DNA of 64,000 nt from Deltaproteobacteria bacterium (GTDB lineage: Bacteria > Desulfobacterota > GWC2-55-46), in contig JACRNL010000010.1 in assembly GCA_016234935.1 (NCBI GenBank), positions 95,617-159,616 of the forward strand. Direction: 5' to 3'. The position numbers and the translations under genes were made by a program. Under the pieces are notes generated by a model. It saw only the letters and a list, made by a program, of their open reading frames with translations, was not told where the DNA came from and did not search any database. Below, piece after piece: positions 2,037-54,203 of this stretch (position 1 is its first letter; each line of letters starts with the position of its first letter).

Positions 2037-2147
2037 CCTCTTCCTTATCTCCTCCCCCTTGATGGGGGAGGGTAGGGTGGGGGTGAAAAAAGCCCCTTGA
2101 AGGGGTTCAACCCCCTCACCCTACCCTCTCCCGCGAGGGGAGAGGAG
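2037..2147. repeat. Pair of REP-like elements (ccccaccctaccctcccc-loop-ggggaggag family) with an 18-bp micro-insertion at 2093-2114
   Basis: Hairpins ctccccc..gggggag and cctctccc..gggagagg; cccc ttgaa gggg ttcaa cccc at 2093-2114. Related copies at 4667-4730, 24105-24205 and 26012-26073. Confidence 0.8.
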
Positions 2148-2785: not shown

Positions 2786-4795
2786 TTGAGCGAATACTTC
2801 AAGGATAAGGAAACATCCGCGCTCAAAAACAGGGCGGTCTATGTCGGCATATTCGTCGCCGTGGTATTCTTCACGCTGGCCGTGCGTCTGTGGTTTCTGC
2901 AGATAAAAGAGGGCGAATACTACGCTGAGCTTGCAAAGAGCAACCGCATCCGCACCGTCAAATCCCCCGCGCCGCGCGGGATGATATACGACCGCGTCGG
3001 CGTTAAACTCGTTGACAACCGCCCCGGCTTTGACCTCTACCTAGTCCCTGAGGACGTCTTGGACTGGGTAAAGACAAAGGAACAGATCAACGACATCCTC
3101 GACGTAGAGCCGGAGGCCGTCCAGGAAAAACTCGACCAGGCCGAGGACAGGCCGCCATTCCAGGCCATAAAGCTAAAAGAAGACCTCTCGTGGGAGGAGA
3201 CGGTCAGGATAGAAAGCTCCAAATTCGAGATGCCCGGCGTTATCCTTGAGGTCAGCCCCAAGAGGAATTACATCTTCGGCGAAGCGTTCTCGCACCTCAT
3301 AGGCTATCTCGGCGAGATAAACGAAAAAGAGACAAAGGAATTCAAGAACGACAAAAACTACGCCCCCGGCGACCTCATCGGCAAGTACGGCATGGAAAAA
3401 TCATTTGAGCCGGACTTGAAGGGCGTGGACGGCGCGAAGGAGATAGAAGTCGACGCGCTGGGCAGGAAGATAAAACTCGCGAACTGGACGCCGCCGTACC
3501 CGGGCAACGACATAAAGCTCACCATAGACATCAAGGCGCAGATGGCCGCGTGGGCCGCGATGGACGGCAAGGCAGGGGCCGTGGTGGCCATGGAGCCGCA
3601 GACGGGCAGGATACTGGCCATCGTGAGCGCGCCCGCGTTCGACCCGAACGCGCTCTCAAGCGGCATCTCCGCCGAGGACTGGAACGACCTTATCGAAAAC
3701 CCTCTGAACATCTTCAACAACAGGCCCATACAGGGGCTCTACCCTCCGGCGTCGACCTTCAAGCCCGTACACGCGGCGGCGGCCCTTGAGGAGAAGGTGA
3801 TTACGCCGAAAACAATGATATACTCCGGCCCGTCCTTCCGATTCGCCAACCGCGACTACCGCGACTGGCAGGAGAAGGGACACGGTATCATCAACGTCCA
3901 CAGGGCAATAGTCGAATCTTCAGACACCTTTTTCTATCAGGTGGGACTCAAGCTCGGCGTTGACAGGCTTGCCGTTTACTCAAAGAGCTTCGGCTTCGGC
4001 CGGAAGACCGGCATACAGCTTCCAAATGAAAAGCCCGGCGTCGTGCCGTCGACCGCGTGGAAAAGGGCCGCGCTGAAGACGCGCTGGTATGACGGCGAGA
4101 CTATCTCGGCTTCGGTCGGACAGGGCTATATGCTGGCAACGCCGCTGCAGCTCGCGTCGGCCTATGCCGCCATAGCCTCCGGCGGCACGATCTACGCGCC
4201 GCAGCTCGTCGAAGAGATAAGGTCCCCGATGGGGACGCTCTTGAAACAGTTCGTCCCGCGGCAAACGGGCAGACTGGCCATATCCGAAGAGACCCTCGGC
4301 GAGGTAAAGGACGCCCTGGAAGGCGTTGTCAATGAAGACGGCGGCACCGCGCGCTTTCTGAGCTATGCAAATCTGAAGATAGCCGGCAAGACAGGCACGG
4401 CGCAGGTGACCAAGCTCATCAAGCGGGAAAGGAACGTCTTGAAGATACCTTACGAATACCGCGACCACGCGTGGTTCGCGGGCTACGCGCCGTATGACGA
4501 TCCGAAGATAGCGGTGGCCGTAATAGTCGAGCACGGCGGCTTCGGCGCGAGTTCCGCGGCGCCGGTCGCCAGAGATATCTTCAAGGCATTCCTCGGCGCG
4601 GACGACAAAGACGCCGGCCAAAAACCCGGACTGACGCCGGACAGGGACATTTTACAGACACGGGAACCCCCCACCCTACCCTCCCCAGCGAGGGGGGTTG
4701 AACCCCTTCAAGGGGAGGAGAAATGGAAGGAGTCATCTGAAACAAAAAAACCGCCGGAAAAACCGGAAGAAAACGGAGACGGGATAAGTGATTGA
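2786..4795 (+). CDS. mrdA: Penicillin-binding protein 2; C-terminal tail partly encoded by a REP element
   Basis: SxxK (STFK), SSD and KTG motifs, N-terminal TM and the mre operon context. Confidence 0.95.
   Translation: MSEYFKDKETSALKNRAVYVGIFVAVVFFTLAVRLWFLQIKEGEYYAELAKSNRIRTVKSPAPRGMIYDRVGVKLVDNRPGFDLYLVPEDVLDWVKTKEQINDILDVEPEAVQEKLDQAEDRPPFQAIKLKEDLSWEETVRIESSKFEMPGVILEVSPKRNYIFGEAFSHLIGYLGEINEKETKEFKNDKNYAPGDLIGKYGMEKSFEPDLKGVDGAKEIEVDALGRKIKLANWTPPYPGNDIKLTIDIKAQMAAWAAMDGKAGAVVAMEPQTGRILAIVSAPAFDPNALSSGISAEDWNDLIENPLNIFNNRPIQGLYPPASTFKPVHAAAALEEKVITPKTMIYSGPSFRFANRDYRDWQEKGHGIINVHRAIVESSDTFFYQVGLKLGVDRLAVYSKSFGFGRKTGIQLPNEKPGVVPSTAWKRAALKTRWYDGETISASVGQGYMLATPLQLASAYAAIASGGTIYAPQLVEEIRSPMGTLLKQFVPRQTGRLAISEETLGEVKDALEGVVNEDGGTARFLSYANLKIAGKTGTAQVTKLIKRERNVLKIPYEYRDHAWFAGYAPYDDPKIAVAVIVEHGGFGASSAAPVARDIFKAFLGADDKDAGQKPGLTPDRDILQTREPPTLPSPARGVEPLQGEEKWKESSETKKPPEKPEENGDGISD
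4667..4730. repeat. REP-like element inside the mrdA 3' end, carrying an 18-bp micro-insertion (4694-4715)
   Basis: ccccccaccctaccctcccc...gggg ttgaa cccc ttcaa gggg aggagaaatggaagg, translated as PPTLPSPARGVEPLQGEEKWK. Confidence 0.85.
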
Positions 4796-25522: not shown

Positions 25523-26032
25523 ATGAAAGAAAACCAGAGTAAAAAAAATTATGAAAGCCCTCCGCCCCCTGATGGGGCTGAACCCCCAAAAAAGGGGCAT
25601 GAGCAAAGACATAAGGTCTTCCCGTTTCTCCTCGGGACCAAGGAATATGCGTTCGAGGCTGGAGATGCGCCGGAGGTCTTGAAGGCCATGCCGGTTACCG
25701 AAGTCCCGTCCACGCCCGCCTTCATAAAAGGCATCATACCCTTCAGGGGGGAGATGCTTGCCGTCATTGACCTTAGAAACCGCCTTGGCATGGAAGGCGC
25801 CGCGCAAAAATCGAAGATGTTAATAGCAGGCGCCGATGACCTGAGGGCCGCCTTTCTCGTTGACGCCGTCGCAGGCGTCTGTGAAGCGGACACGCACCCG
25901 CCTGATGCTACGGAGGAAAAAGACGTTTTCGTAAAGGGGATCATTAAGTCGCAAGGGCGCGTCATCCGCGTGCTGTCGCTCGAAAAACTCCTGAATATCA
26001 GCATCAGCATGCCCCCCTGCCCTCCCCCGTGA
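25523..26032 (+). CDS. cheW: CheW coupling protein
   Basis: F.LG..EYA, TEVP..P.FIKGII..RG....VIDLR and VD.V motifs. The N-terminus has a repeat unit (25565-25586) and the C-terminus runs into a REP. Confidence 0.85.
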   Translation: MKENQSKKNYESPPPPDGAEPPKKGHEQRHKVFPFLLGTKEYAFEAGDAPEVLKAMPVTEVPSTPAFIKGIIPFRGEMLAVIDLRNRLGMEGAAQKSKMLIAGADDLRAAFLVDAVAGVCEADTHPPDATEEKDVFVKGIIKSQGRVIRVLSLEKLLNISISMPPCPPP

Positions 26033-26400
26033 AGGGGTTGAACCCCCTCAGGGGGGAGGAGAAATGGAAGGGGTCGTGCCGACAAAAAAATGACTCTCAC
26101 GCGGATGCGCGCGGGCGCCTTGCTTCAGCCTCCTCAATAATCCTTTCTTTTTATCGCGGCAAAGGTTTTATATGCCGTCATTCCCGCCTGCCCCCTGAGG
26201 GGGTTCAACCCTTTGAAAGGGTTCAACCCTCGCGTGCCCCGTTTAAAACCCCCGCTCCCCGATAGAGGCATTCGAGGACATGTTTAGACCTGCGAGGGTT
26301 GAACCCTTTCAAAGGGCAGGCGCGCGAGGGCAGGCTGAAGCAGGGGATATTTTAATCCGCCCTCGAATAGTTGTATCCCCGATACAGACATTCGGGGGGT
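26012..26400. repeat. Cluster of nested palindromic elements, including 18-bp units at 26034-26055, 26191-26230 and 26295-26316
   Basis: gggg ttgaa cccc ctcag gggg; cccc ctgag gggg ttcaa ccct ttgaa aggg ttcaa ccct; aggg ttgaa ccct ttcaa aggg; plus cccgata..cattcg.gg hairpins. Confidence 0.85.
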
Positions 26401-26507
26401 CTCATTTTTTTCATACAGAGCAGGGTTATTTACTTGACATATCCGGCTAATGTTGGCTAAATATAAAATCGCCCGTATTCTTCAATAACATTCAGTTTTA
26501 AGGACAT

Positions 26508-27926
26508 ATGTTCAATAAAGTACTGATCGCAAACAGGGGCGAAATAGCCTCAAGGATAATCCGGGCGTGCAAGGAGCTTGACATCCCCACGGTGGCCATC
26601 TATTCCGAGGAGGACGCCACGTCCCTCTACGTGAAAAAGGCCGACGAATCCTACATGGTCGGCCCCGGCCCGATACAGGGATACCTTAACATCCACCGCC
26701 TTGTCGACCTTGCGATGAAAGTCGGCGTGGACGCGATACACCCGGGCTACGGCTTTTTATCCGAAAACCCGAAGTTCCCGCTCCTTTGCGAGAAAAAGGG
26801 CATTACCTTCATCGGCCCGTCAAGCATGACCATCGCGGACATGGGCAACAAGGTCACGGCCCGCCAGATGATGAAAAAGGCCAACGTGCCGATACTGCCC
26901 GGCACGGATAACTCCGTAAAAGACATTGCCGGGGCCGTCGAATTCGCCGAACAGATAGGCTACCCTGTCATGGTCAAGGCGTCGGGCGGCGGCGGCGGGC
27001 GCGGGCTTCGCGTCGCTAAAAATAAGCAGGAACTGACAAACGCCTTCACAACGGCGCAGAAGGAGTCCGCCGCCGCATTCGGCCTCTCAGAGGTATTTTT
27101 AGAAAAATACATAGACAGGCCGCACCACATAGAGTTTCAGATACTGGCCGACAAGTTCGGCAACACCATACACCTCGGCGAGAGGGACTGCTCCATACAG
27201 AGACGCCATCAAAAGGTGCTTGAGATAACGCCTTCGCTCATCCTCGACCAAGAACTTAGAAGGCGCATGGGCGAGGCGGCGGTAAAGGCCGCCAGGGCCG
27301 CAAACTACACGAACGCCGGAACGATAGAGTTTCTCGTTGACGAGGCGAGGAACTTTTATTTCATAGAGATGAACACCCGCATACAGGTGGAGCATCCGAT
27401 AACCGAAGAGACCACCGGCATAGACCTCGTTAAAAAGCAGATAGAGATAGCCGCTGGCAAGCCCCTTGAACTCAGGCAGGAGGACGTGCGCATAAACGGC
27501 TACGCCATCGAATGCCGCATATGCGCCGAAGACCCGAAGAACAACTTCCTGCCCTCGTTCGGCAAGGTCACGGCCTATTATTCGCCCGGCGGCATAGGGG
27601 TCCGCATAGACGGCGCCATTTACAAGGACTTCATCATACCGAGCCATTACGATTCGCTGATAGTAAAGCTGATAGTAAGGGGATCCACGTGGGACGAGAC
27701 GGTCAGGAGGATGCACCGCTCTCTCGATGAATTCATCGTGCGCGGCGTAAAGACGAACATCCTCTTCCTTAAAAACATAATGGCCGATCCGGACTTCCGC
27801 GCCGGCAGGTTCGACACAGGCTACATAGACAGAAAGCCCGCGCTCATGGACTATAAGGAATACCGCGCGCCAACGGACATCGTTGCCGCCATAGCCGGGG
27901 CCATAGCGGCGCATCACGGCTTTTGA
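26508..27926 (+). CDS. pycA: Pyruvate carboxylase subunit A (biotin carboxylase)
   Basis: IANRGEIA, HPGYGFLSEN, GGGGRG, RDCSIQRRHQK and EMNTRIQVEH motifs; paired with a carboxyltransferase gene. Confidence 0.9.
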   Translation: MFNKVLIANRGEIASRIIRACKELDIPTVAIYSEEDATSLYVKKADESYMVGPGPIQGYLNIHRLVDLAMKVGVDAIHPGYGFLSENPKFPLLCEKKGITFIGPSSMTIADMGNKVTARQMMKKANVPILPGTDNSVKDIAGAVEFAEQIGYPVMVKASGGGGGRGLRVAKNKQELTNAFTTAQKESAAAFGLSEVFLEKYIDRPHHIEFQILADKFGNTIHLGERDCSIQRRHQKVLEITPSLILDQELRRRMGEAAVKAARAANYTNAGTIEFLVDEARNFYFIEMNTRIQVEHPITEETTGIDLVKKQIEIAAGKPLELRQEDVRINGYAIECRICAEDPKNNFLPSFGKVTAYYSPGGIGVRIDGAIYKDFIIPSHYDSLIVKLIVRGSTWDETVRRMHRSLDEFIVRGVKTNILFLKNIMADPDFRAGRFDTGYIDRKPALMDYKEYRAPTDIVAAIAGAIAAHHGF

Positions 27927-27964
27927 AACTACGGAAAGAACCCTACGGAGACGATTCTAAAACA

Positions 27965-29884
27965 ATGCCCGACACCAAAAACAAGAAATCCAAAAACGGG
28001 GATGCCAAAAAGCCCGCCGCCGGTCAGACAGGCTCTAAAAAGACCTGGATAACGGACACGGTCCTCAGGGACTCGCACCAGTCGCTGCTTGCCACGCGCA
28101 TGAGGACGTCCGATATGATTCCCGCCGCCAAAATGCTCGACAAGGTCGGCTACTGGTCGCTTGAGGTATGGGGAGGCGCCACATTCGACGCGTGCCTGAG
28201 GTTTTTAAAGGAAGACCCGTGGGAGAGGCTTAAGCTTTTAAGAAAGATCATACCCAACACGCGCCTTCAGATGCTGCTACGCGGCCAAAACCTCGTGGGA
28301 TACAGGCACTACCCGGACGACGTGGTCAAAAAATTCGTCGAGCGCGCCGCTAAGAACGGCGTTGACGTCTTCAGGATTTTCGACGCCCTTAACGACATAA
28401 GAAACATCGAAGTCTCGATAAAGGCCGCAAAGGACGCAAAGGCCCTTGTCGAGGCGACTATATGCTACACCACAAGCCCCGTGCACACGCACGAAGGGTT
28501 CGCGGACATGGCGCTCAAACTCCAGGCCCTCGGGGCGGACACCATCTGCGTGAAGGACATGGCCGGGCTTTTAACGCCGTGGGCCGCGCATGACCTCGTT
28601 ACCAAGCTCAAACAGAAGATAAATCTTCCGATACACATCCATTCGCACGATTCATCCGGCCTTGCCTCGATGAGCTACTTAAAGGCCATTGAAGCCGGCG
28701 CGCAGATAGTAGACACGGCCATATCGAGCCTCGCGTCGGGGACGTCGCAGCCGCCGACGGAGTCCATTGTCGCGGCCCTGAAGGACACCCCGTACGACAC
28801 CGGTCTCGACCTCGCGCTTTTGTCCGACATAGCCGACTACTTCCGCGACGTAAGAAAAAAATATGTGAAGTTCGAGAGCGAGCACACGGCGATAAACACG
28901 AAGACGCTCGTGGTGCAGGTGCCCGGCGGGATGCTTTCAAACCTCGCGCATCAGCTCAAAGAGCAGAATGCCCTTGACAGGATGAACGACGTCTTCAAGG
29001 AGATACCGCTCGTCCGTAAGGACATGGGCTACCCGCCCCTTGTCACGCCCACAAGCCAGGTCGTCGGCACGCAGGCGACCCTTAACGTCCTCATGGGCGA
29101 CAGATACAAGGTCATAACGAGCGAGACGCGCAACTACTTCAAGGGCCTCTACGGCAGGCCACCCGGCCATGTGGACGAGGGAGCGAGGAAAAAAGCCATC
29201 GGGGACGACAGGCCTATCACCTGCAGACCGGCGGATCTCCTCGAGCCGGAGCTTGACAGGCTCTCAAGGGACCTTGACGGCAAGGCAAAGTCCATCGAAG
29301 ACATTTTAACATACGCGCTCTTTCCCATAGTCGCCCTTGAGTTCTTTGAACAGAGGGAAAACGGCAAGCTCACGCCGGAGCCACTTGAGCCGGCGATAGA
29401 AAGCGCGCCCGGCGGCACGGTCGTGCCGCACCTTGCGCCGAGCGAGTTCATCGTTACCGTGCATGGAGAGTCCTATAAGATAAAGGTCGCCGGGGCGGGG
29501 CACAGGGTCGAGGGCAAAAGGCCGTTCTTTATAACCATCGACAACCGCCTCGAAGAGGTGATGATCGAATCGCTTACAGAGGTCATCCCCACGACGGCCG
29601 GCGAGATAGAACGGTCGTCCATAACGCAGTCATACAGGCGCAAGGCAAAGAAAGAAGGAGACGTCACCACGCCGATACCCGGCAAGGTGACGTCTATAAA
29701 GATTACCGTGGGGGCAAAGGTCTCAGAGGGCGATACCGTGCTGACCGTCGAGGCCATGAAAATGGAAAACGAGGTGCACACGCCGATAAGCGGCGTAGTC
29801 AAGAAGATACTCGTCAAGATCGGCGATACCGTCAATCCGGACGAGACACTCATGGAGATAGAAAAGGAAAATCCGCCGTCCTGA
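27965..29884 (+). CDS. pycB: Pyruvate carboxylase subunit B (OadA-like carboxyltransferase plus biotin carrier)
   Basis: LRDSHQSLLATR, WGGATFD, KDMAG, HSH, VTPTSQ and biotin-attachment EAMKM motifs. Confidence 0.9.
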   Translation: MPDTKNKKSKNGDAKKPAAGQTGSKKTWITDTVLRDSHQSLLATRMRTSDMIPAAKMLDKVGYWSLEVWGGATFDACLRFLKEDPWERLKLLRKIIPNTRLQMLLRGQNLVGYRHYPDDVVKKFVERAAKNGVDVFRIFDALNDIRNIEVSIKAAKDAKALVEATICYTTSPVHTHEGFADMALKLQALGADTICVKDMAGLLTPWAAHDLVTKLKQKINLPIHIHSHDSSGLASMSYLKAIEAGAQIVDTAISSLASGTSQPPTESIVAALKDTPYDTGLDLALLSDIADYFRDVRKKYVKFESEHTAINTKTLVVQVPGGMLSNLAHQLKEQNALDRMNDVFKEIPLVRKDMGYPPLVTPTSQVVGTQATLNVLMGDRYKVITSETRNYFKGLYGRPPGHVDEGARKKAIGDDRPITCRPADLLEPELDRLSRDLDGKAKSIEDILTYALFPIVALEFFEQRENGKLTPEPLEPAIESAPGGTVVPHLAPSEFIVTVHGESYKIKVAGAGHRVEGKRPFFITIDNRLEEVMIESLTEVIPTTAGEIERSSITQSYRRKAKKEGDVTTPIPGKVTSIKITVGAKVSEGDTVLTVEAMKMENEVHTPISGVVKKILVKIGDTVNPDETLMEIEKENPPS

Positions 29885-29967
29885 CGATCCAACGGGCCGC
29901 GCGATAACGTGAAACCGCGCATTTTTTTTTGAGCAGATGCTTTTTCCAACCATAGACGGAGGCGGCC

Positions 29968-32034
29968 TTGAAGATCAAGCATAAATTTCTCATTGTCTTT
30001 CTCGTCCTGATGCTCCTTGCCGTAAGCGCTACCGGCTACCTGAGCTTCAAGACCACCGAAACCGCCGTGGTCGAAAACGCATTGAAGGCCATGGAAAACG
30101 ACCTCGACACCATTCAAACAAAGGTCTCCGCCTTCCATGAAAAGGCAAAAAGCGAGCTCGCCTTCGCCCTGAATTATCCGGTGTTCAAAGAGTACTTCTC
30201 CCTTAAAGAGACTAAGGCCGGAAACAGGTATAACGGCAAGGTCATCCAGTTCACCCCTGAGCAGAGACGGCTTAAAGGCAAGATCGACGAATGGACCCAC
30301 TTTGTCCAGAGCGCCTTCCCGATTGCCGAGACCTGCGTAATCGACTTGACAGGGCAGGAGCATTCCCGCATCACATACGGACAGGTCGCGCCGGACGAGG
30401 ACTTTTCAAGCGACGAAAACACAGCCACGTTCTTCGAGCCGACCTTCAAACTTAAAAAGGGAGAGGTTCATGTCGCATATCCCTATATGTCGGTTGACGC
30501 AAAAAAATGGGTCTTTGCCTACACCTCCCCAATAGTCCTTGACGACGGCGCCAAGCCCGCGTTCTATCACTTCGAGATACCGATATCCTATTTTCAGGAT
30601 ATAGTATCCAAACATACGGCAGGGAGGGCCTTTGTCCTTGACCCGCAGGGCATCATCGTGGCGGACAGCAAGGTATCTATCGATATAGCCATGAAGAGCC
30701 AGGCAAAGGCCGGCGAGCATACCATGTCCGGCGCCGGCCACAAATTAAAAGACTACCTCCCCGCGGTCGAGACGATTTCGACGGAAGGCGGTTTTCTTGA
30801 TATCGTCAGGGAGATGAAGGCCGGAAAGAGCGGGACTGGCGTATTCTCCTCAGGCGGCCAGACCTTCTATGTGGCCTACAAGCCGCTCTCCACGTTCAGC
30901 TGGTCAGTAGCTGAGATAAAGTCATATTCCGAGCTTTTAGAGGGCGGCGCGTCCCTTTCCAAGATCAAAGGCACGATCGCCGTATCGGCCGCGCTCGCGC
31001 TGATAGCCGCCTTCGTGGTCGTCTACGTCGTCTCAGACAGGGTGACGCGGCCGCTCCTTGCTCTTACCGTTACCGCAGGCAGGGTAGCGGGGGGCGAGCT
31101 TAACGTAAGATTTCCGGAGATAGACTCAAAAGACGAGGTGGCAAGCCTTCAGACGGCCATGAAGGACATGGTCGGAAAATTAAATGAGATAGTGGCCGAC
31201 GTGGAGATGGCGGCCGACAAGGTGACGGGCGCAGGGGATGAGATACAGGAGCACTCGGAAAAAATGTCCGGCGGCATACAGGCCCAGGCGAACAAGGCCG
31301 CGCAGATAGCCACGGCCTCGGAAGAGATGACAAGGACCATCGCGGAGATAGCCAGAAACACGGCGTCTATATCCGACACGACCGTCAAGGCCGCCGACAC
31401 TGCCGAAAAGGGAAAGAAGATAGTCGAGAGGTCTATACAAGAGGTCGGCGACATAGCGGACATGGTAACGGGCATAGCGAGGAACATAGAGTCGCTCGGC
31501 GAAAGGTCCAAGGAGATAGGCAATATAGTGGGCGTCATAAACGATATAGCCGATCAGACAAACCTGCTTGCGCTGAACGCCGCCATAGAGGCCGCGAGGG
31601 CCGGCGAGCAGGGAAGGGGCTTCGCGGTCGTGGCCGACGAGGTGAGGTCTCTTTCCGAGAGGACGGCAAAGGCGACATTGCAGATAAACGAGATGATACA
31701 GGCGATACAGGCGGATGTCTCCTTCGCGGTAAGCTCTATGAAAGAGGGGACGACCAAGGTCGGCCAGGGGGTCGCCTTCTCTTCCGAGGCCGGCAGGGCG
31801 CTCGGCGATATAGTCGAGAGCGTTAAAAACCTGCATACCATGATCGACCAGATAGTCACTGCCGCACACCAGCTCACAAGCGCCGCCGAGCAGATAAGCT
31901 CCGATATAGGGGAAGTAGCCGAGGTTTCCAAGGGGGCGTCCACAGGCGCCTCTGATATAAACAATTCAGCTGGAGCGCTCACCAAGCTCTCAAAAACGCT
32001 GCAACTTGCCCTTAGCAGGTTTAAGACGGATTAG
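29968..32034 (+). CDS. Methyl-accepting chemotaxis protein
   Basis: Two TMs, a periplasmic Cache-like sensor, HAMP and IADQTNLLALNAAIEAARAGEQGRGFAVVADEVR. Confidence 0.95.
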   Translation: MKIKHKFLIVFLVLMLLAVSATGYLSFKTTETAVVENALKAMENDLDTIQTKVSAFHEKAKSELAFALNYPVFKEYFSLKETKAGNRYNGKVIQFTPEQRRLKGKIDEWTHFVQSAFPIAETCVIDLTGQEHSRITYGQVAPDEDFSSDENTATFFEPTFKLKKGEVHVAYPYMSVDAKKWVFAYTSPIVLDDGAKPAFYHFEIPISYFQDIVSKHTAGRAFVLDPQGIIVADSKVSIDIAMKSQAKAGEHTMSGAGHKLKDYLPAVETISTEGGFLDIVREMKAGKSGTGVFSSGGQTFYVAYKPLSTFSWSVAEIKSYSELLEGGASLSKIKGTIAVSAALALIAAFVVVYVVSDRVTRPLLALTVTAGRVAGGELNVRFPEIDSKDEVASLQTAMKDMVGKLNEIVADVEMAADKVTGAGDEIQEHSEKMSGGIQAQANKAAQIATASEEMTRTIAEIARNTASISDTTVKAADTAEKGKKIVERSIQEVGDIADMVTGIARNIESLGERSKEIGNIVGVINDIADQTNLLALNAAIEAARAGEQGRGFAVVADEVRSLSERTAKATLQINEMIQAIQADVSFAVSSMKEGTTKVGQGVAFSSEAGRALGDIVESVKNLHTMIDQIVTAAHQLTSAAEQISSDIGEVAEVSKGASTGASDINNSAGALTKLSKTLQLALSRFKTD

Positions 32035-32242
32035 CAAAACATAGATATAAAAAGACGCTCAACCGTCCTGACGGCCGCCAAACGCCTTTCTGTCATCCCA
32101 GCCCGCAGAACAGGCCCATAGAAACAGGGCTGAAGCCCTGTTGTTTTGTTTAAATCTTAACGGGTCTGAAGACTCGTTTCTACGAAATACAAGCCCCCTG
32201 CTCCTTTGCATGAACACTGCTATGCCGTCGAAAAAAAATACT

Positions 32243-33220
32243 ATGAAACTGACAAGAAAAATATTAATGCTTCTTGTGTTTTTCCTTATTCCCTGCGCGC
32301 CGGCCTTTGCCGGCATAACGGACTACCGGCCCATATTCGTGCCGTTTTACGAAGAAAATCAAATAAAGATAGCCATACGTTCTTTTAAGCGGGATGCGAA
32401 AAAGGAACTCATCATCCTCGACCCCTACTCCTTCGAGACCGGAGTTGTCCCGGCTGAGACGGTCAACCTGAATAAATCCTACGGCATCGGGCTGACGCGC
32501 CTTCGGGCAACCCCTTTTTACAGCGCGCTCGAGAAATACACGGCCGCTCCGGTAAAGCTTCAGAACCACGGCGCGGTAAAGGGAGAAGGCCGTGGAATGT
32601 TCATCACGGTTGACATGTGCCCGTCCAAAAGGCCCTTTGACAAGGGGCTTTTCGAGGCGCTGGCCGGCCTTGAGACAGGGCCGGCTCCGGTTGCCATCGC
32701 CATAAGCGGCGATTGGCTCAAGAATCACCCAAAGGAGTTCAAATGGCTATTAGAGATGATAAAAGCGAACAGGCTTGACGTCACATGGGTTAACCACAGT
32801 TACAGCCATCCCTATGAAAAAGGCGCTCCGCTTGAAGGGAATTTTCTCCTTAAAGAAGGGATTGACTTCGACAACGAGGTGCTGGCAAGCGAGGCATTGA
32901 TGATCCAGTCCGGCATACTGCCGTCTCCTTTTTTCCGTTTTCCGGGGCTTGTGGCGGACACTGAAGCGATGAAAAAGCTCAAAGCCTTATCGCTTATCCC
33001 TATCGGCTCAAACGCGTGGCTGGCAAAGGGAGAAACCCCGGCCCAAGGCGGCATCGTCCTCGTCCACGGCAACGGCAATGAACCCAACGGGATAAAGAGG
33101 CTTCTTAAGTTTCTGAACGCAAAAAAAGCTGCATTCAAGAAGCACTCACTGACGCTAAATTCCCTTAAAAACGCCTTCGTGGCAGGCAAAGGCGCAAAAG
33201 AAGGCAACATCCTGAGATAG
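32243..33220 (+). CDS. Exported polysaccharide deacetylase-like protein
   Basis: Signal peptide; ITVDMC, NHSYSH, FFRFPG and IVLVH motifs (NodB-like). Confidence 0.65.
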   Translation: MKLTRKILMLLVFFLIPCAPAFAGITDYRPIFVPFYEENQIKIAIRSFKRDAKKELIILDPYSFETGVVPAETVNLNKSYGIGLTRLRATPFYSALEKYTAAPVKLQNHGAVKGEGRGMFITVDMCPSKRPFDKGLFEALAGLETGPAPVAIAISGDWLKNHPKEFKWLLEMIKANRLDVTWVNHSYSHPYEKGAPLEGNFLLKEGIDFDNEVLASEALMIQSGILPSPFFRFPGLVADTEAMKKLKALSLIPIGSNAWLAKGETPAQGGIVLVHGNGNEPNGIKRLLKFLNAKKAAFKKHSLTLNSLKNAFVAGKGAKEGNILR

Positions 33221-33405
33221 TTATGTATTTAAAGTTCTTCGGGCGCCTGCGAGTTATACGTTGTCGGTTATCAGTTATCGGATAACGGTTAACGGATAAC
33301 CTTTTTTTAACAGGTTAATTTTCTGGACAAGTATATTCCGGATATAGTAATATTAATTAATACCATTCAACAAATGGAAAAATCAGAGATAAAGGAGATG
33401 TTTGC

Positions 33406-33918
33406 ATGGAAATCACGACTGTTGAGCAGGCAAAACAATTCATCAAAAAATGGCTTGAGGAAAACCATCACCAGGTAAAGGAAATTACCGACGACGCGGT
33501 AAATTTCCATTTTGAAGTTGACTATCCCGTAGGTTCGCTCAAGAGGCAGAGGATCCTTCAGCCCAAGGATTATCCAGGCCTTGTCGTCCTTCTTAACGGC
33601 GTTTCCATTGCCAACGAGCACACCGAAAAGCTCAAGAACATGACGGAAGACGAGAAGGACTCGTTTTACGGCCAGATAAGAAACGACCTTCTGTTCCTTG
33701 ACAACAGCTACGATATGAACATAGACGACGACGGCGTCGCCAAGACCATCCAGTTCTCTTACGAGTGCTATCTTGACGGCCTTACGAAGACAAGCCTTTA
33801 CAAGGGCCTTCTGCTCAACCACAGGACGCTTATATACATCGTCACGAAGTTCAACGAGAAGTTCGGCGTGCCGGTCATGCCCTCGGCGCCTCCAGGAGCA
33901 CAAGAGGCTGCGCACTAA
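33406..33918 (+). CDS. Hypothetical protein, DUF2299-like
   Basis: AAGGAG RBS; IKKWL.E, ANFHF-like and DGLTK motifs. Family recalled from memory. Confidence 0.55.
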   Translation: MEITTVEQAKQFIKKWLEENHHQVKEITDDAVNFHFEVDYPVGSLKRQRILQPKDYPGLVVLLNGVSIANEHTEKLKNMTEDEKDSFYGQIRNDLLFLDNSYDMNIDDDGVAKTIQFSYECYLDGLTKTSLYKGLLLNHRTLIYIVTKFNEKFGVPVMPSAPPGAQEAAH

Positions 33919-34046
33919 GGTCTGGCCGCTCTTAACCTGAAGCACTATGGACAAAAGCCCACGAAGGGCACGGCGCAGCGGCTGGCAGGAACGCGGCCTT
34001 TTAAGCATGTCCCCACAGGCTGTAAGCGGGGAAAGGAGTACCCATT

Positions 34047-34871
34047 ATGAAGATGCTTGAGATCAAATACAAATGCCTGCATCCGTCGTGCATCGTCAAC
34101 TGCCGCGACGGCGTTATCGCTATGCCTGAAGAGCACTTCAACGTCCTCAAGGGTCATTACGCGGACGAGACCACCTTCAGAAGTCCGAAGGGCCTTTGCC
34201 GTCTTGGCTTTAACCAGGCCTACAAGGCCGTGGCGATAATAGCCGAGGCGGACTTCGCCGATGCCGCGCACGGCCATGAGCATGAAGGGTGCGGACATGA
34301 CCCGATGGGGCTTCTTTCAGCCGACCATCAGGTTATTCTGAAAAAACTTGACGAAATAGAACAGCAGATAAAGATGCGCGACTCAGGCACCCTGTGGCGG
34401 ACGACCACGGAGCTTGAGAACATCATCATGCTTCACTCGATACACAAGGAAGAGGACACGCTTTTTCCTTTTCTTCTGGATCTGCCCATCGGGGACGGCC
34501 TTGTATCCATCATAAAAGAAGACCACCGCGAGCTTGTGACGCTCATGCACTCCTTCCGCACCGGACTTGCCGAGAGCAGGATACTCGACGGCCTGGGCAT
34601 GTCCATTATAGTCTGCCTCAGGAGCCACATCCGCAAAGAAGACAATGAATTCTTCAAGCTCATTGACAAGCTCCTTGACCACGACCTCAGGACCAGGATA
34701 CTTGCCGGCTTTAAAAAAGCCGAAGATGCATTCGTTCCGATAGTGGCCGACGAAAACACGAGAGAACAGCTGAAAAAAGAGGCCCTCGCCATGAAGCGCG
34801 ACGAGATGGACGACGCGATAGCCGCGGCCCTCGAAGAGACACGCTCCAGCCTGAGCGGCTGCTGCCACTGA
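34047..34871 (+). CDS. Hemerythrin-domain protein with Cys/His-rich extensions
   Basis: L.ADH, H..KEE..LFP, EDH and HI.KEDN motifs. Confidence 0.8.
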   Translation: MKMLEIKYKCLHPSCIVNCRDGVIAMPEEHFNVLKGHYADETTFRSPKGLCRLGFNQAYKAVAIIAEADFADAAHGHEHEGCGHDPMGLLSADHQVILKKLDEIEQQIKMRDSGTLWRTTTELENIIMLHSIHKEEDTLFPFLLDLPIGDGLVSIIKEDHRELVTLMHSFRTGLAESRILDGLGMSIIVCLRSHIRKEDNEFFKLIDKLLDHDLRTRILAGFKKAEDAFVPIVADENTREQLKKEALAMKRDEMDDAIAAALEETRSSLSGCCH

Positions 34872-34896
34872 TCAAACCGGACGCAAGGACATAAAT

Positions 34897-34933
34897 AAAA
34901 AAACGGGGCTGGAACTTCCAGCCCCGTTTTTTT
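34897..34933. terminator. Bidirectional rho-independent terminator
   Basis: aaaaaaacggggctgga act tccagccccgttttttt, between convergent genes. Confidence 0.85.
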
Positions 34934-34965
34934 TATTTCGCTTTCACATGTAATTCGATGCCCGG

Positions 34966-35337
34966 TCAGAGAGGCAGGTTTATAAAGATGATATAGAGCC
35001 ACATGAGGATGAGCGACGCGCCGAGCCAGCTTACATATTTAAAGGCCCGCCTTTTTTTCCTGCTTATCATCACGATGGCCAGCTTCATGAATATCAGGAA
35101 AAATCCGAAGAGCCAGCCGGCGGCGGAAAGGATGCTGAAACCGTAATTCACGAAGGACAGCGCCGCGAGGATGGTGTAGAACGTTATCGTGACGATGCCG
35201 TTGAAGCGGTGTATCTTGCCCTCGATATTGACATGCGTGCCCCTTACTATCTGCATCCCGCTTATGAAGCTCGACGTGGCCAGGACAAGCCCTATGGAGG
35301 CGAGCACCGTTGATATGGTCGAATAGATATTTTGCAT
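34966..35337 (-). CDS. Small four-TM membrane protein
   Basis: Four hydrophobic segments; abuts the upstream gene. Confidence 0.7.
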   Translation of the reverse strand: MQNIYSTISTVLASIGLVLATSSFISGMQIVRGTHVNIEGKIHRFNGIVTITFYTILAALSFVNYGFSILSAAGWLFGFFLIFMKLAIVMISRKKRRAFKYVSWLGASLILMWLYIIFINLPL

Positions 35338-35341
35338 CAGC

Positions 35342-36160
35342 TCAAACCTTATAAATCTTTCGCAGTATGTTTTTCTGTATCAGATAAAAAACAATGCCGG
35401 CATAGATCAGTATTACCGGCAGTATGAGGACGAAGTTCGGAAATGTGGTGTTGCCGCCGACGTCGTTGCCGTCCGAATCGCTTTCTACGATGCTGAAGGC
35501 GTTCCTCAGCACCTTATTGCCTTTTACGGCGTTGCGGTGCGACGACCACAGGAGGATGCCGTTCCACGTGTTGACGTTGGCGGAGTTGCCGCTGAGCAGG
35601 TTGCTGTTTGACGAGCTCAGGAAGATGCCCGTGTCGCCGTTCATGTCCGCGGAGTTGTCCATGACGGTGTTGCCGGTTGACGCTTCGAGATATATGCCGT
35701 ACTGGGTGTTTGAATCCGCGGCGTTGCCGGTGATATGATTTGCCGAAGACGAATATACGAGTATGCCGCTGCCGTTTTTAACGGCCCTGTTGTCCAGTAT
35801 GCGGCTGGCGTCGGCGTTATGCAGGGAAAAGCCTGACACGCTTGAACCTGTCGCGGTAAAGCCCGACACTACCGCTTTGGCGGCATGGTCTATCTTGAAT
35901 ACAGGCTCGGTCTTGACCGCCGCGGTAACGACCGTTGCCTCAGGGCCTTTGATGGACCTTAACTGCACCGCCTTTCTTATGACGATATTTTCGCTGTAAT
36001 TGCCGGCGCCGACGATTATGACGTCGCCCTGCTCTGCCGCGTCAACGGCCTGCCGTATATTCCTGTAACCCTCAGGCACGCGCAAAACCGAGGCAGAGAC
36101 GACAGGGGCCGCAAGCACGGCAACGGCAAACAGCGGTAACGCGATGGTTATCTTACCCAT
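35342..36160 (-). CDS. NosD/CASH right-handed beta-helix protein with a C-terminal TM
   Basis: I.QAVDAA..GD.I.V..G.Y.ENI and repeated GI.L..S..N...N motifs. Confidence 0.8.
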   Translation of the reverse strand: MGKITIALPLFAVAVLAAPVVSASVLRVPEGYRNIRQAVDAAEQGDVIIVGAGNYSENIVIRKAVQLRSIKGPEATVVTAAVKTEPVFKIDHAAKAVVSGFTATGSSVSGFSLHNADASRILDNRAVKNGSGILVYSSSANHITGNAADSNTQYGIYLEASTGNTVMDNSADMNGDTGIFLSSSNSNLLSGNSANVNTWNGILLWSSHRNAVKGNKVLRNAFSIVESDSDGNDVGGNTTFPNFVLILPVILIYAGIVFYLIQKNILRKIYKV

Positions 36161-36282
36161 GCAGGAACTTTCACCCGGCTTTTCAGGATATTGAACGGAG
36201 CTGAATTCTACCAAACCAGCGCAATAAAGTCCAAAGGATTACATCAGTATCAACAGTAAATAATGACAGCGGCCTGCTAAAA

Positions 36283-36804
36283 CTACCCTATCTTAAGCTC
36301 AGTCTCAAGCGGGATGGCGTTGGTGAGGCAATAGACCGCCGGGCATCTCTGTTTGGAAAGCTCTTCAAGCTCCTTTATCTTCGCCGTAGGGGCGTCGCTC
36401 TCGACGTGAAGCGTGAACTTGACCTTTCCGGCAATCGGGTTTTCAGAAAGACCGAAGACCTTTGAAAAATCGAGATTGCTCTCGGCAAGGACGCTGAGCT
36501 TTTTAAGGGTCACGCCTTCCATCGCGGCCATCGTGGCGAACGTAGCCACGTAGCATGACGCGGAGCCGTAAAGGCAATATATCATCGGGCCGGGCTGCGT
36601 GCCCCCGCCGCCGAGAAAGGACGGCTGGTCTGCCTCAAGGGTCATCCTGCCGTTCTCGAACTGGACTGTGGCCCTGAACTGGCTGCCCTCGCCGACGTTC
36701 CATTCCCCTTCTATCTTTGTCACCTTTTTTGCCTTTGAGAGGTCTTTCTTTACCTCGGCTATGGTCACGTAGAGTTTTTCAAGGTTTACGTTGTTCTTTT
36801 TCAT
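36283..36804 (-). CDS. OsmC/Ohr-like protein
   Basis: ADQP..LGG.G..P.P, SC and RCP motifs. Confidence 0.8.
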   Translation of the reverse strand: MKKNNVNLEKLYVTIAEVKKDLSKAKKVTKIEGEWNVGEGSQFRATVQFENGRMTLEADQPSFLGGGGTQPGPMIYCLYGSASCYVATFATMAAMEGVTLKKLSVLAESNLDFSKVFGLSENPIAGKVKFTLHVESDAPTAKIKELEELSKQRCPAVYCLTNAIPLETELKIG

Positions 36805-36850
36805 CTATCCCCCTTTTTTCAGATGCTTGATGCCGCCGGAATCCGGTAAA

Positions 36851-37906
36851 TCATTCAACCCTTATCCGCCAGCCCTCTTCCGCGCTGACGACGGAACCGA
36901 TAAGATAGTGCCTGACGCGCCGCTCCGTTAGATTACTTGAGAGCATATCATACTTCCCTTCAGGAATGGAAATAAGAAGTCCGCCCGAGGTCTGCGGGTC
37001 GAAAACGGCCATTTGCAGGGCGGCGTCCATGCCGTGCTTGAACTGAATGTCCGGGGCCATGAACTCCATATTTTCAGCAATGGCGCGGGGCCTGTTGCCA
37101 CGGCTGGTCACAAGCTCCAGCGCCTTCGGAAAAAACGGTATGTCCTTTGACGCGATGACAAGGTTTACGTTGGATGCCGTTGCCATCTCCAGGGCGTGGC
37201 CCATAAGGCCGTAGCCGGTAATGTCCGTGCACGCCTTGGCGCCTGTCTCCACCATGGCCTCCGCGGCGGCCCTGCTGAGCGTCTTCATCGACGTAAACGC
37301 GGCCTGGGCATCTTCAGGCCTGATATTTCCCTTTTTAAGCGCGCTCGTTATTATGCCCGTGCCGATGGGCTTTGTGAGCACGAGGAGGTCGCCCGGCCTT
37401 GCCCCGGCGTTCGTTATGACCTTTTCAGGATGCACAACGCCGGTGACGGACAGGCCGAACTTTATTTCCTTATCCTCGATGCTGTGGCCTCCGGCAAGCA
37501 CGGCCCCGGCCTCGTCCAGCCTGTCAACGGCGCCCCTTATTATCTCGGTCAGCACCTCCATGCCAAGCTCTTTGGGGAAGCAGACGATGTTAAGGGCAAA
37601 CCTCGGCACGCCGCCCATGGCGTAGACGTCGCTTAATGCGTTCGCGGCGGCTATCTGGCCGAAAAGGAACGGGTCGTCCACTATGGGCGGAAAGAAGTCC
37701 AGCGTGGACACGACGGCTATTTCACCGGACATCTTATAGACCCCCGCGTCGTCGGACTTGTCAAAACCAACGATGAGGTCTTTATCCCTTTGCATCGGTA
37801 GCCCGCGCAGGACCTGCGCGAGCGGCTTGGCGCCGAGTTTGGCCGCTCAGCCGGCGCAGCTTGCCCAGTTCGTGAGCTTTATCTTTTTGCCGCTTTTGAA
37901 CATCAT
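36851..37906 (-). CDS. selD: Selenophosphate synthetase, selenocysteine at codon 20
   Basis: The frame extends past the annotated start through TGA at 37847-37849: MMFKSGKKIKLTNWASCAG-U-AAKLGAKPLAQVL. Also DDAGVY, DFFPP, NALSDVYAMGG and DPQTSGGLL. Confidence 0.95.
37802..37846 (-). promoter_or_regulatory. Candidate bacterial SECIS element of selD
   Basis: Hairpin ctcgcgcag-gtc-ctgcgcggg about 25-45 nt after the UGA; its apex resembles the E. coli fdhF GCAGGUCUGC. Confidence 0.6.
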
Positions 37907-38611
37907 CTATATATACCCGTAAAGCCTGTAAAGCGCAATGGCCGCGTACTCCCAGAGGAGTTCATCCATCAAATTAATCCTGCCGAGGCCGCCCACCCTG
38001 TATCGGGCGACGTCCTTTACCGGCGCGCCGTAATACGAAAGACCGAGTTTTTTGGCGACGAGCGAGGCCCTTTTCATGTGGAGGGACGACGTCACGATGA
38101 TGCAGCTCTTCAGCCCCTTTTCATCCATGTATTTTTTCGCGTGCAGGAGATTTTCGTACGTATTGGTCGACGAGGGGTCTATGACCGCCGCCTTTTCCGG
38201 CACCCCGAGCTTTAACGCTGTCTCTCCCATGAGGCCGCCCTCTGAAGCGTCTATCACGCCTTTGTCCGTCGACTTCATTAACGTATGGGCGATCTTCGCG
38301 GCCTTTGAGGCGATGGCCCCGCCGGTGAACATTATCCCCGGCGCCCAGCCTTCTTTGTAAAGAAGCAGTCCGCGGATGAGCCGCTCATTCGACGCGCCGG
38401 CGAGGACGCCGTTCTTGAACGCCCCGCCGCCGAGAACGACTATTATGTCGGCCTTTTCAAGCGTCTCCTTCACCACCAGCGGCCTTGCCAGCAGGTTGGC
38501 AGCCGGCGTGAACATTACGAAAAGCGCAGTTGCGGTAAAGGCGGCGCAAAACCATTTTATAACGGTCAACGCGGTCTTTACGCGGCCGGATTTATGCAAT
38601 GACTTATGCAA
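37907..38611 (-). CDS. YdcF/DUF218 family protein
   Basis: IVVLGGG, TGG, SE, S.NTYEN, VTS..HM.RA motifs. Confidence 0.88.
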   Translation of the reverse strand: MHKSLHKSGRVKTALTVIKWFCAAFTATALFVMFTPAANLLARPLVVKETLEKADIIVVLGGGAFKNGVLAGASNERLIRGLLLYKEGWAPGIMFTGGAIASKAAKIAHTLMKSTDKGVIDASEGGLMGETALKLGVPEKAAVIDPSSTNTYENLLHAKKYMDEKGLKSCIIVTSSLHMKRASLVAKKLGLSYYGAPVKDVARYRVGGLGRINLMDELLWEYAAIALYRLYGYI

Positions 38612-40712
38612 TTTCCCTCCCCTTGAAGGGGCTGAGCCCCCTCAGGGGGTTCAACCCCCTTAACACTCTTAAATCCCCCTGCCGGAGCGTGACCCTCTCC
38701 CTGTCAAAATATTCGAGTATCTCTATCGCGAGCTTCCTGCCGACGCCGAGTATGTCCCTGAACTCGGCGGCCTTTATCGGCCCCTTTTCCATGATATGCG
38801 CGCAGAGCCTCTCTTTGGCGTCATTAACGGCCTTGCCGGACATATAGACGCCTTCTTTTATCTTCACCACGACGCCGCGCTTGACGAGATATCCAAAGAC
38901 GCGCGCCGCGTCCTCAGGCTTGAACGCGAGCCCCCTTATCTCATCCATAGAGCGCGCGGTAAAACCGCCGGATTGGAAAAGGGCCATTACAGCGGCCTCT
39001 ATCTGCGCGTCCTGTCCGGCGGCGCGCGGACAATGCCCGGCAAGCGCGACGGCCTTGCCGTCTCTTTTAATCATGCCCTGCGTTATCATTACGTCAAGGC
39101 ATTCCTTGAAAAATGAAACTGTGCAACGCGCCCAGCACCACTTTTCGCTGCCAACGTTTGTATTTCGCATGAACTCTTGGCGATGGAAAGTGGTGCTGGG
39201 CGCTCTTACGGCCTTAAATATCTGGTCTTCCTTGACGCCGGCCTCGGCGGGGCTTGCGGCGTGAAGGTCTGAAAGCGTTTTTACGATGTCGCTCTTCAGT
39301 TTTTCAACCCTGTCAACGGACGCTATCGAACTGCCCATGATGGCGAACTTCCCTCTCCCTGAGGGAGTCCGGGACAGAGGCCCTTTTGATTCGAATGATT
39401 TAAGCAGAACATCTTCCCTTATATTCAAGAGGAGAGAGACGGTCTTTACGTCAAAAAAAACAGCCTTGCCGTGAAAGACCGAGGCGAGCAGCTCATGGAG
39501 TTCAGCCCCTTCAAGCGGCAACACCGGCTCCCTGAAGGAGTTCAACTCCTTTGAAAGACCGGGAAGATGCACAACCCCGCCGCCAACGGTGGCATTTATT
39601 GCAGGGTCTCTGAGGATGAAACGGTCGCCCCGAAGCATTAACATGGGCTTTTTCAATATCAGCCTGCCAAAGGCGCGCCGTTCGTCCGCCTTGCGGCCCG
39701 TCCGGCTCCCTAAGGGAGTTCGGCTCCCTGAGGGAGTCCCGCCCTTTAATCTTATTGTCGCTGGAACGCTTTGCGTAAAATGGTGCACGGTAAGTATCGC
39801 GTTGTTTTTTATCTTCGCATCCTTCAGAAACTCAAAAAAGCAGTCCACGCGGCGCGTATTGGCCGGGCTTGAAAAAGCCGACAGGGCCGGGTCGGCGAGC
39901 ACGCAGCCGCGCGTTATGCCGCTGTGTGAAATGCCGCTTATGTTTACGGCGGCCCGCTCCCCGGCGTTGACCTCATCGGCCTCCATGAACAGGCTTTGAA
40001 GCCCCCTTACACGCGCCTCTTTTCCAAGAGGAAAGCATACGGCCCTGTCGCCTTTTTTTATCGAGCCTGAGGCCACGGTGCCGGTAACGACCGTGCCAAA
40101 GCCCGGCACGCTGAAGGAGCGGTCAATGGGGAGCCTGAAAAAGCCGCCATTATCCCGCGCGCGCGGGGCGAGGGCTTTTTCTATCAGCTTTTTAAGGCTT
40201 GAGATGCCCTCGCCCGTGACGGAAGAGACCGGCTGGATAACTGAACCTTCAAAGGCCGTGCCTTTTATAAGTTTTAAGATTGCATTTTCAACCTCACGGA
40301 TGCGCGCCTCTTCCGCCATGTCGCGCTTGGTGATGGCGAATACAGCCCTTTTTATCCCAAGAAGCACGCAGATGCCGAAGTGCTCAAGCGTCTGCGGCAT
40401 TATCCCGTCGTCGGCGGCCACCACAAAAAGCGCCATGTCAATGCCGGTCGTTCCGGAGAGCATGTTCTTTATGAAACGCTCATGGCCGGGCACGTCAATG
40501 ACTGCGGCCCTTAGAGCGCCCCCGGCGCCGTCGAGGTCAAGATACGCAAAGCCGATGTCAATGGACAGCCCGCGCTTTTTTTCTTCCTTCAGCCTGTCCG
40601 TGTCAATGCCCGTAAGGGCACGGACGAGGGAGGTCTTGCCGTGGTCTATGTGCCCGGCGGTGCCGATGACGGCGGATATGCGCGTTATGTGCGGCATGTT
40701 CTGTTGTTCCAT
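38604..40712 (-). CDS. selB: Selenocysteine-specific elongation factor SelB with several repeat-derived inserts
   Basis: GTAGHIDHGKT, TDRLKEEKKRG, DVPGHERF, IDRSF...GFGTVVTGT and C-terminal RK.AI..LEYFD winged helix. Confidence 0.95.
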   Translation of the reverse strand: MEQQNMPHITRISAVIGTAGHIDHGKTSLVRALTGIDTDRLKEEKKRGLSIDIGFAYLDLDGAGGALRAAVIDVPGHERFIKNMLSGTTGIDMALFVVAADDGIMPQTLEHFGICVLLGIKRAVFAITKRDMAEEARIREVENAILKLIKGTAFEGSVIQPVSSVTGEGISSLKKLIEKALAPRARDNGGFFRLPIDRSFSVPGFGTVVTGTVASGSIKKGDRAVCFPLGKEARVRGLQSLFMEADEVNAGERAAVNISGISHSGITRGCVLADPALSAFSSPANTRRVDCFFEFLKDAKIKNNAILTVHHFTQSVPATIRLKGGTPSGSRTPLGSRTGRKADERRAFGRLILKKPMLMLRGDRFILRDPAINATVGGGVVHLPGLSKELNSFREPVLPLEGAELHELLASVFHGKAVFFDVKTVSLLLNIREDVLLKSFESKGPLSRTPSGRGKFAIMGSSIASVDRVEKLKSDIVKTLSDLHAASPAEAGVKEDQIFKAVRAPSTTFHRQEFMRNTNVGSEKWCWARCTVSFFKECLDVMITQGMIKRDGKAVALAGHCPRAAGQDAQIEAAVMALFQSGGFTARSMDEIRGLAFKPEDAARVFGYLVKRGVVVKIKEGVYMSGKAVNDAKERLCAHIMEKGPIKAAEFRDILGVGRKLAIEILEYFDRERVTLRQGDLRVLRGLNPLRGLSPFKGREIA
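38619..38658. repeat. Nested pair of 18-bp micro-insertions at the selB 3' end
   Basis: cccc ttgaa gggg [ctgag cccc ctcag gggg] ttcaa cccc. Confidence 0.9.
39355..39736. repeat. Four micro-insertion loci inside selB, mostly CTCC/GGAG type (39355, 39497, 39528, 39706)
   Basis: ctcc ctgaa ggag ttcaa ctcc (39528-39549); ctcc ctaag ggag ttcgg ctcc ctgag ggag (39706-39736). Confidence 0.78.
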
Positions 40713-40713
40713 T

Positions 40714-40801
40714 AGAAGCAGCGCGGGGCTTCTGCCCCGCGCTGCTTCTTGATGTGACTCTAAAGTTCTTTGGGCCTGCCTTTCTTTCAGGAAAGGCAGG
40801 C
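40714..40801. repeat. Two hairpins between selB and the hydrogenase genes
   Basis: 16-bp perfect stem at 40714-40749; taaagttctttgg+gcctgcctttc..gaaaggcaggc at 40761-40801, with a relative at 55668-55708. Confidence 0.75.
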
Positions 40802-48876: not shown

Positions 48877-48921
48877 TTGAAAGGGTCAAGCCCCCTCAGG
48901 GGGTTGAACCCCTTCAAGGGG
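48877..48921. repeat. 18-bp micro-insertion array, intergenic
   Basis: aggg tcaag cccc ctcag gggg ttgaa cccc ttcaa gggg. Confidence 0.85.
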
Positions 48922-54181: not shown

Positions 54182-54203
54182 GGGGTTGAACCCCTTCAAG
54201 GGG
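54182..54203. repeat. 18-bp micro-insertion whose right GGGG is the tRNA 5' end
   Basis: gggg ttgaa cccc ttcaa GGGG(ctgtagctcag). Confidence 0.9.

Follow-up and report, generated by a model that had tools for sequence, protein, structure and literature searches.

What decides the four bases at the centre of a repeat that is only 22 bp long? The question is raised by a window of 64,000 nucleotides (contig C5:95617-159616) from an uncultured groundwater bacterium, whose assembly (2.15 Mb, 54% G+C) is marker-complete but in 15 contigs. Short modules recur in this window with the layout X-linker-X'-linker-X, in which a core 4-mer (X') is the reverse complement of two identical flanks (X). An earlier note had cited five of them, namely GGGG-TTGAA-CCCC-TTCAA-GGGG at 4694..4715, 48900..48921 and 54182..54203, AGGG-TTGAA-CCCT-TTCAA-AGGG at 26295..26316 and CTCC-CTGAA-GGAG-TTCAA-CTCC at 39528..39549, and all five sequences were found exactly as given. 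It interpreted the core as copied from the target, with target-specific subfamilies as an alternative. The co-variation proved to be real and tied to the insertion site, whereas synthesis of the core from the target is not favoured. We lean, without firm conviction, towards the loci being copies of very small palindromic elements, which form target-specific subfamilies that copy themselves.

Module structure and flank-core co-variation

The sequence TTGAA-N4-TTCAA occurs seven times in the window, compared to a mean of 0.07 (largest value 1) over 100 shuffles. Genome-wide, it was found 104 times, and in 61 of these occurrences (39 GGGG and 22 AGGG) the left flank, the right flank and the reverse complement of the core are the same 4-mer. 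When any X and any pair of 5-mer linkers were allowed, 130 perfect X-L-X'-L'-X 22-mers were identified, against 0, 1 and 0 in three shuffles, while perfect modules with nTGAn/nTCAn linkers (X-nTGAn'-X'-nTCAn'-X) amount to 230 in the genome, with about one expected by chance. These 230 comprise 185 GGGG-type and 32 AGGG-type modules, and the other 13 belong to six rare types (GAGG, GGAG, GGGT, CAGG, GGGC and CCGG). Each module consists of two 13-bp odd palindromes, X-n-TGA-n'-X' and X'-n-TCA-n'-X, which overlap in the core that they have in common and in which n is T, C or, less often, G. The order of the linkers, read 5' to 3' on either strand, is polarized, since a G-centred linker followed by a C-centred one was counted 230 times, against 44 for C-then-G, 51 for G-then-G and 42 for C-then-C.

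The genome-wide tabulation of flank against core, which the earlier note had called for, covered 347 modules. At 42 positions in these modules, the two flanks agree on a base other than G; the core base is its complement in 40 of these cases, so that flank and core do not vary independently of each other. In addition, 147 changes affect one flank only, 13 affect one flank together with the complementary core base, and 28 affect the core only. At position 1, the state (A,C,A), that is AGGG-CCCC-AGGG, was never observed, compared to 32 cases of (A,T,A), which excludes a fixed core combined with true duplication of the target. Flank logos seemed to connect the flank bases with the type of linker, but this was rejected as an artefact of degenerate neighbouring units.

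Modules also join into longer chains, which can be read as bracket words if a G-centred linker opens and a C-centred linker closes. Balanced words account for 134 of the 160 two-linker maximal chains (25% expected by chance) and for 27 of the 35 four-linker chains (15 nested and 12 tandem; 12.5% by chance), and the single six-linker chain is also balanced. Nested chains make no single long hairpin because blocks face like blocks, and the chain pattern is therefore read as a history, in which 18-bp units were added into any block and 18-bp deletions followed. The 22-mers themselves fold no better than their shuffles (-3.2 to -4.2 kcal/mol, z -0.2 to -1.1), and the two hairpins of a module are mutually exclusive and weak.

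Gain and loss beside pre-existing 4-mers

The exact 22-mer was found in 41 metagenome contigs, the majority of which come from a syntenic sister species (80–93% identical to this genome), and in none of 40 relatives of other genera, so that an outgroup at the DNA level is lacking. Modules are carried by this genus and by the organisms behind L002, L009 and L016. The comparison with the sister, about 12% diverged, covers 65.4 kb aligned over 32 loci that were ascertained through the module itself. It revealed 17 indels of module sequence, with lengths of 18 bp (10), 36 bp (4) and 54 bp (3). Empty alleles, or empty paralogous copies, hold a single X that equals the flanks of the filled site. Clean empty sites display a single GGGG at L015 and L020, a single AGGG at L029 (AGGG-TTGAA-CCCT-CTCAG-AGGG in this genome) and the core CCCC of an already present module at L021, where the core itself served as target; three alleles (this genome, L021 and L039) are known at one site. 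Similarly, the right GGGG of the module at 54182 (54200-54203) is the 5' end of tRNA-Ala(GGC) at 54200-54275, that is, a target that existed beforehand. Among the matches listed for contigs of four sequencing runs against window positions 23800-43799, there was no clean 18-bp presence/absence allele; these contigs end or jump at modules, and only a replaced stretch of selB was usable. Altogether, an 18-bp palindromic unit, smaller than any well-understood mobile element, is gained and lost at hundreds of genome sites, nearly always beside a 4-mer complementary to its own middle.

A second micro-repeat, the hairpin repeat REP-L (window 26230-26345), serves as a host for the modules. Its 27-bp unit comprises a tag of 4 nt and two 7-bp arms around a 9-nt loop, and the AGGG-type module at 26295..26316 lies in the arm GCG-AGGG-CAGGC. 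The opposite arm holds a 40-bp chain, CCCC-CTGAG-GGGG-TTCAA-CCCT-TTGAA-AGGG-TTCAA-CCCT (26191..26230), in which a GGGG-type unit abuts an AGGG-type one. At least two further REP-L arms contain this composite, and a third one has a variant of it. Overall, 130 REP-L arms are empty (103 with AGGG and 27 with GGGG) and 17 are filled, by inserts of 18 or 36 bp and never of 9 or 27 bp. The core matches the flank in all 16 single inserts, and a filled arm tends to have the X of the empty arm most similar to it (GGGG 4/5, AGGG 12/12; Fisher p 0.002). Note that the nearest neighbour of a filled copy was an empty one in 17 of 17 cases, which is near the base rate (130/146) and argues only against a recent clade of filled copies. 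This genome and the sister also differ in the presence of REP-L units themselves, with at least seven indels of 27 bp (L003, L004, L007, L018, L022 and L037). A third family, with GTCC/GGAC blocks and GTGAC linkers, is locally clustered (L022 / G000:C7:141-144 kb; C8:49.4 kb) and differs between the two species in 18- and 36-bp steps.

Proposed self-copying subfamilies and rival explanations

The choice between the explanations depends mainly on whether X varies independently of the remainder of the module and of its position. The T:C ratio of linker types is 35:2 after AGGG and 138:115 after GGGG (p 5e-7), and G-type linkers accompany GGGT (15/19), GGGC (7/8) and GTCC (7/7). In addition, four of six rare X families are clustered within 5 kb when same-family pairs 30–5000 bp apart are compared to 2000 shuffles: GGAG with 3 pairs against 0.24 expected (reached in 8/2000 shuffles), CAGG with 6 against 0.38 (0/2000), GTCC with 4 against 0.18 (0/2000) and GGGT with 5 against 1.5 (50/2000). 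No clustering within 5 kb was observed for GGGC and GAGG. As an example, selB alone holds three of the nine GGAG/CTCC palindromes of the genome. Finally, an identical rare 22-mer, GGGT-GTGAC-ACCC-TTCAA-GGGT, occurs in the phosphoglycerate mutase gene and at one intergenic site, and a nested 36-bp composite is present ten times. Linkage, clustering and recurrence would be hard to obtain if each core were made anew from its target, which predicts an X independent of linkers and position, and they fit the copying of variants better. The subfamilies that the earlier note had offered as its alternative consequently become the better account.

If so, the unit gained or lost would be 18 bp long (linker nTGAn', block X', linker nTCAn' and block X) and placed beside a pre-existing X. 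The complementarity of the core to the element's own terminal block would be part of its hairpin design, and the element would be added only where the target 4-mer equals this terminal block; pairing (or microhomology) of the target X with the 4-nt core X' would be the simplest way to such a match. The variants (T- and C-type GGGG, T-type AGGG, G-type GGGT, GGAG, CAGG and others) would be self-copying subfamilies that spread into matching 4-mers, in many cases within a few kb. Every block of a module already in place could serve as a target, which would yield nested and tandem chains, and loss would be a precise 18-bp deletion between the two X. We infer the direction of the events, the choice of target through pairing and the agent, whether an enzyme or template switching during replication.

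Several observations weigh against self-copying subfamilies with strict matching. Flank and core occur in mixed states such as AGGG-CCCC-GGGG (11 + 10 at position 1), and the excess of one-flank variants (147) over core-only variants (28) suggests that one flank alone is derived from the target and that matching is less than strict. The locus L003 has CCCG in its empty allele and CCCC-GGGG-CCCG in the filled one; at L012, where the sister has a GGAG-type module and this genome GGGGGG, either the target or the core may have changed first. The single GGGG-type inserts in REP-L all have TT/TT linkers (4/4), compared to about 30% of GGGG-type modules, which hints that context or conversion between REP-L copies also contributes. 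None of the indels was polarized by an outgroup at the DNA level, and some 'insertions' may therefore be deletions. For a new subfamily to arise, two or more coordinated changes are required. As for machinery, no match to PF01797 (Y1), PF01385 (TnpB), PF00078 (reverse transcriptase) or PF01609 (DDE_Tnp_1) was found in the assembly; control genomes did give PF01797 matches, and a gene may lie in an unassembled gap.

A bolder version of an element that chooses its target, which we hold only tentatively, is that the 4-nt core acts as a guide. An 18-nt hairpin element would then pick its site by pairing of core and target, and a single change in the core would retarget it and found a subfamily. 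Movement would be due either to an enzyme, of the host or specific to the lineage, that has escaped recognition or to template switching during replication, in both cases without a Y1 transposase. If true, this would be the smallest self-programming mobile DNA known.

It appears unlikely that the core was instead made from the target at every event. According to this scenario, a break with a 4-nt overhang at X would receive a non-templated nTGA extension, a snap-back would copy n and X into n'X', and the ends would pair through X'/X before fill-in. This would explain in one step the triple complementarity for eight X and the exact 4-nt blocks, as well as the n:n' complementarity (n being T, C or G), the mosaic linker pairs, the G-then-C polarity on both strands (230 against 44, 51 and 42) and the matched X at AGGG, GGGT and GGAG targets. 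What it does not accommodate is the strong link between X and linker type, the local clustering of rare X families, the presence of identical rare 22-mers and of a specific 36-bp composite at unrelated sites, and the mixed states (11 + 10), one of which lies at 26191-26230. To our knowledge, no enzyme that adds nTGA has been described. A vaccinia-type topoisomerase site (CCCTT) was also rejected as a cause, since empty sites generally do not contain CCCTT.

Slightly less credible still is that the target has no role, and that modules are static DNA or RNA hairpins whose arms are kept complementary by selection or by quasipalindrome correction during replication, with the triple states as end points of concerted evolution. 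Such correction has a precedent, as template switching at imperfect inverted repeats is described as an established mutational route of E. coli in the available text of PMC7202029. Intermediates with one changed flank and a complementary core do exist (13), and most variant X are transitions away from GGGG. In contrast, the presence or absence of 18, 36 or 54 bp between close relatives shows mobility, and 147 single-flank mismatches persist against 40 coordinated positions. Mutually exclusive and weak hairpins, and nested chains that form no single long one, also speak against arms under maintenance, and the location of modules in genes, before a tRNA and in other repeats makes one shared function unlikely.

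Finally, the idea that modules are footprints left by excision of a larger IS that ends in TTGAA...TTCAA or CTGAG...CTCAG and duplicates 4 bp of its target is very improbable and close to refuted for this assembly: the layout does resemble a duplication with 5-bp inverted ends and three rve-type integrase genes are present, but the search for such a parent suggested earlier (45–4000 bp, equal 4-bp flanks and at least 11/14 further inverted-repeat matches) gave 0 candidates, the inverted repeats that surround the rve genes end in other, unrelated sequences, and both the flank-complementary core and the 36-bp composites would stay unexplained.

Modules within genes and likeness to known systems

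Modules were found within genes whose reading frames remained open, namely selB, recJ and the phosphoglycerate mutase gene. On the minus strand, selB (selenocysteine elongation factor, 38604..40712) hosts at least four module-derived segments. The nested 36-bp composite with its flank, CCCC-TTGAA-GGGG-CTGAG-CCCC-CTCAG-GGGG-TTCAA-CCCC (38619..38658), corresponds to the C-terminal extension LNPLRGLSPFKG of SelB. A CTCC-CTCAG-GGAG palindrome (39355..39367, minus-strand reading) lies in a 6-residue insertion (SRTPSG) absent from the two nearest SelB homologues, and the hairpin chain CTCC-CTAAG-GGAG-TTCGG-CTCC-CTGAG-GGAG (39706..39736) lies in a 14-residue insertion absent from the sister SelB. The GGAG-type module at 39528..39549 reads GGAG-TTGAA-CTCC-TTCAG-GGAG on the minus strand, where it encodes ELNSFR. 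Its linkers (CTGAA/TTCAA) are non-complementary, the alignment that would make it an insertion is ambiguous, and the protein alignment displays no net length change relative to distant SelB homologues. A relative's contig reads AAAGGAGTTGA at this site, with GGAG once, and continues directly with sequence that aligns downstream of the module, which means that GGAG and most of the first linker existed beforehand. An 18-bp insertion with ambiguous exact borders is plausible. The sister orthologue is 83% identical to this SelB and lacks its insertions of 14, 6 and 21 residues as well as the 12-residue C-terminal composite; the 21-residue segment (PSTTFHRQ...WCW) is not module-like. Elsewhere in its sequence, the sister SelB contains module insertions of its own, of 6 and 12 residues.

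In the phosphoglycerate mutase gene, the GGGT-type module adds VTPFKG, which is absent in 22 of the 22 relatives where the motif was found (loci of 25 relatives were examined). Removal of 18 bp leaves AAG-GGT (Lys-Gly codons) with one GGGT, so that X takes its T from the wobble position of the native Gly codon, where relatives have G, C or T. In recJ, the nested 36-bp composite encodes GLNPLRGLSPFKG, and the same peptide is encoded by selB both here and in the sister, at a site that differs between the two. This recJ-like ORF (G000:C10:238592-240517, L046) contains at least four module-derived segments (GAEPPQG, GLNPVTGLGPLRE, GLNPLRGLSPFKG and LPEGVQL).

Further copies in the window include a GGGG-type module in reversed orientation, CCCC-TTGAA-GGGG-TTCAA-CCCC (2093..2114), and the chain CCCC-GTGAA-GGGG-TTGAA-CCCC-CTCAG-GGGG (26025..26055). 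The module at 48900..48921 terminates a longer degenerate chain. A long hairpin repeat, found at window 4650-4730 and about 15 other loci, has the arms GGGTAGGGTGAG... / ...CACCCCCACCCTACCC with a module in its loop, the first linker of which varies among copies. Some rare-X modules stand directly behind a stop codon and are followed by a T run, and these may also act as terminators; two GGGC copies with common extended flanks belong to a longer repeat (G000:C7:182479 and C15:31213; C7:301003 and C10:212163). In the metagenome loci L001–L041 (118.6 kb), all 82 perfect modules are GGGG-type (62 of them G-then-C) and none is AGGG-type, compared to 14% AGGG-type in this genome; the AGGG subfamily may thus have expanded only here, although these loci were ascertained through the GGGG 22-mer.

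If the rule of matched targets holds, sequences much shorter than any transposase binding site are able to multiply, to come and go rapidly and to add residues to essential proteins (SelB, RecJ and phosphoglycerate mutase), and the target would be read through four complementary bases. The modules would then offer a simple natural system in which to seek the responsible activity. In practice, these units break metagenome assemblies, and 6-residue indels can mislead gene comparison. Word searches of the literature, restricted to the open-access subset, returned no 18-bp element with a target-complementary core.

Among known short repeats, the nearest kin may be SDR1-8 of Nostoc punctiforme, reportedly 21–27 nt hairpin-forming mobile repeats (Elhai et al. 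2008, Genome Res 18:1484) that have no known transposase and are inserted into other repeats; they differ in sequence and in host phylum. Rickettsia palindromic elements (RPE) are about 100–150 bp long, compared to the 18-bp unit here, and we know of no 4-mer target-matching rule for them. Likeness to RPE lies in the in-frame insertion into housekeeping genes without their destruction, as given in the available text of PMC3733652. Miniature inverted-repeat transposable elements (MITEs) are likewise non-autonomous, dispersed and flanked by short direct repeats, but the same text gives them 70–300 bp, terminal inverted repeats of 15–30 bp and a parent IS (PMC3733652), and the modules have neither such repeats nor such a parent. 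Repetitive extragenic palindromes (REPs) and their mosaic clusters (BIMEs) also resemble the modules, as these are short, GC-rich, palindromic and dispersed, form mosaic clusters, and occur inside palindromes and in frame within genes (PMC3733652, available text). In contrast, REPs are imperfect palindromes of 20–40 bp and carry a GTAG/CGTC tag, whereas the unit here is 18 bp with 13-bp palindromes, its ends are RGGG/CCCY without such a tag in the consensus, and the assembly has no match to a RAYT (PF01797). A flank-core rule is not described for REPs in that portion of the source.

By analogy, the modules would work most like IS608 of the IS200/IS605 family, yet several features set them apart from this family. 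In IS608, the target tetranucleotide is chosen by pairing with an internal guide, and altering the internal sequence alters the target, according to the available parts of PMC3201880 and PMC5934647. What is common to both is a 4-nt target complementary to a short internal sequence beside a hairpin, together with seamless gain and loss; a guide of this kind would correspond here to the flank-core complementarity seen in the sequence at 40 of 42 positions. The differences are a unit of only 18 nt, with one hairpin-sized palindrome and X on both sides, the lack of Y1 TnpA or TnpB in this assembly, and the lack of the bias for the lagging-strand template: RGGG flanks lie on the G-rich strand in 139 of 217 modules (64%), against 61% expected from RGGG frequency (p 0.37). 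Note that an apparent strand bias relative to GC skew (odds ratio 3.2) reflects the overrepresentation of RGGG itself on the G-rich strand. If the rule holds, the poorly understood micro-repeats of the REP, RPE and SDR kind would be linked to IS608, the one mechanism in which DNA-DNA pairing is known to set the target.

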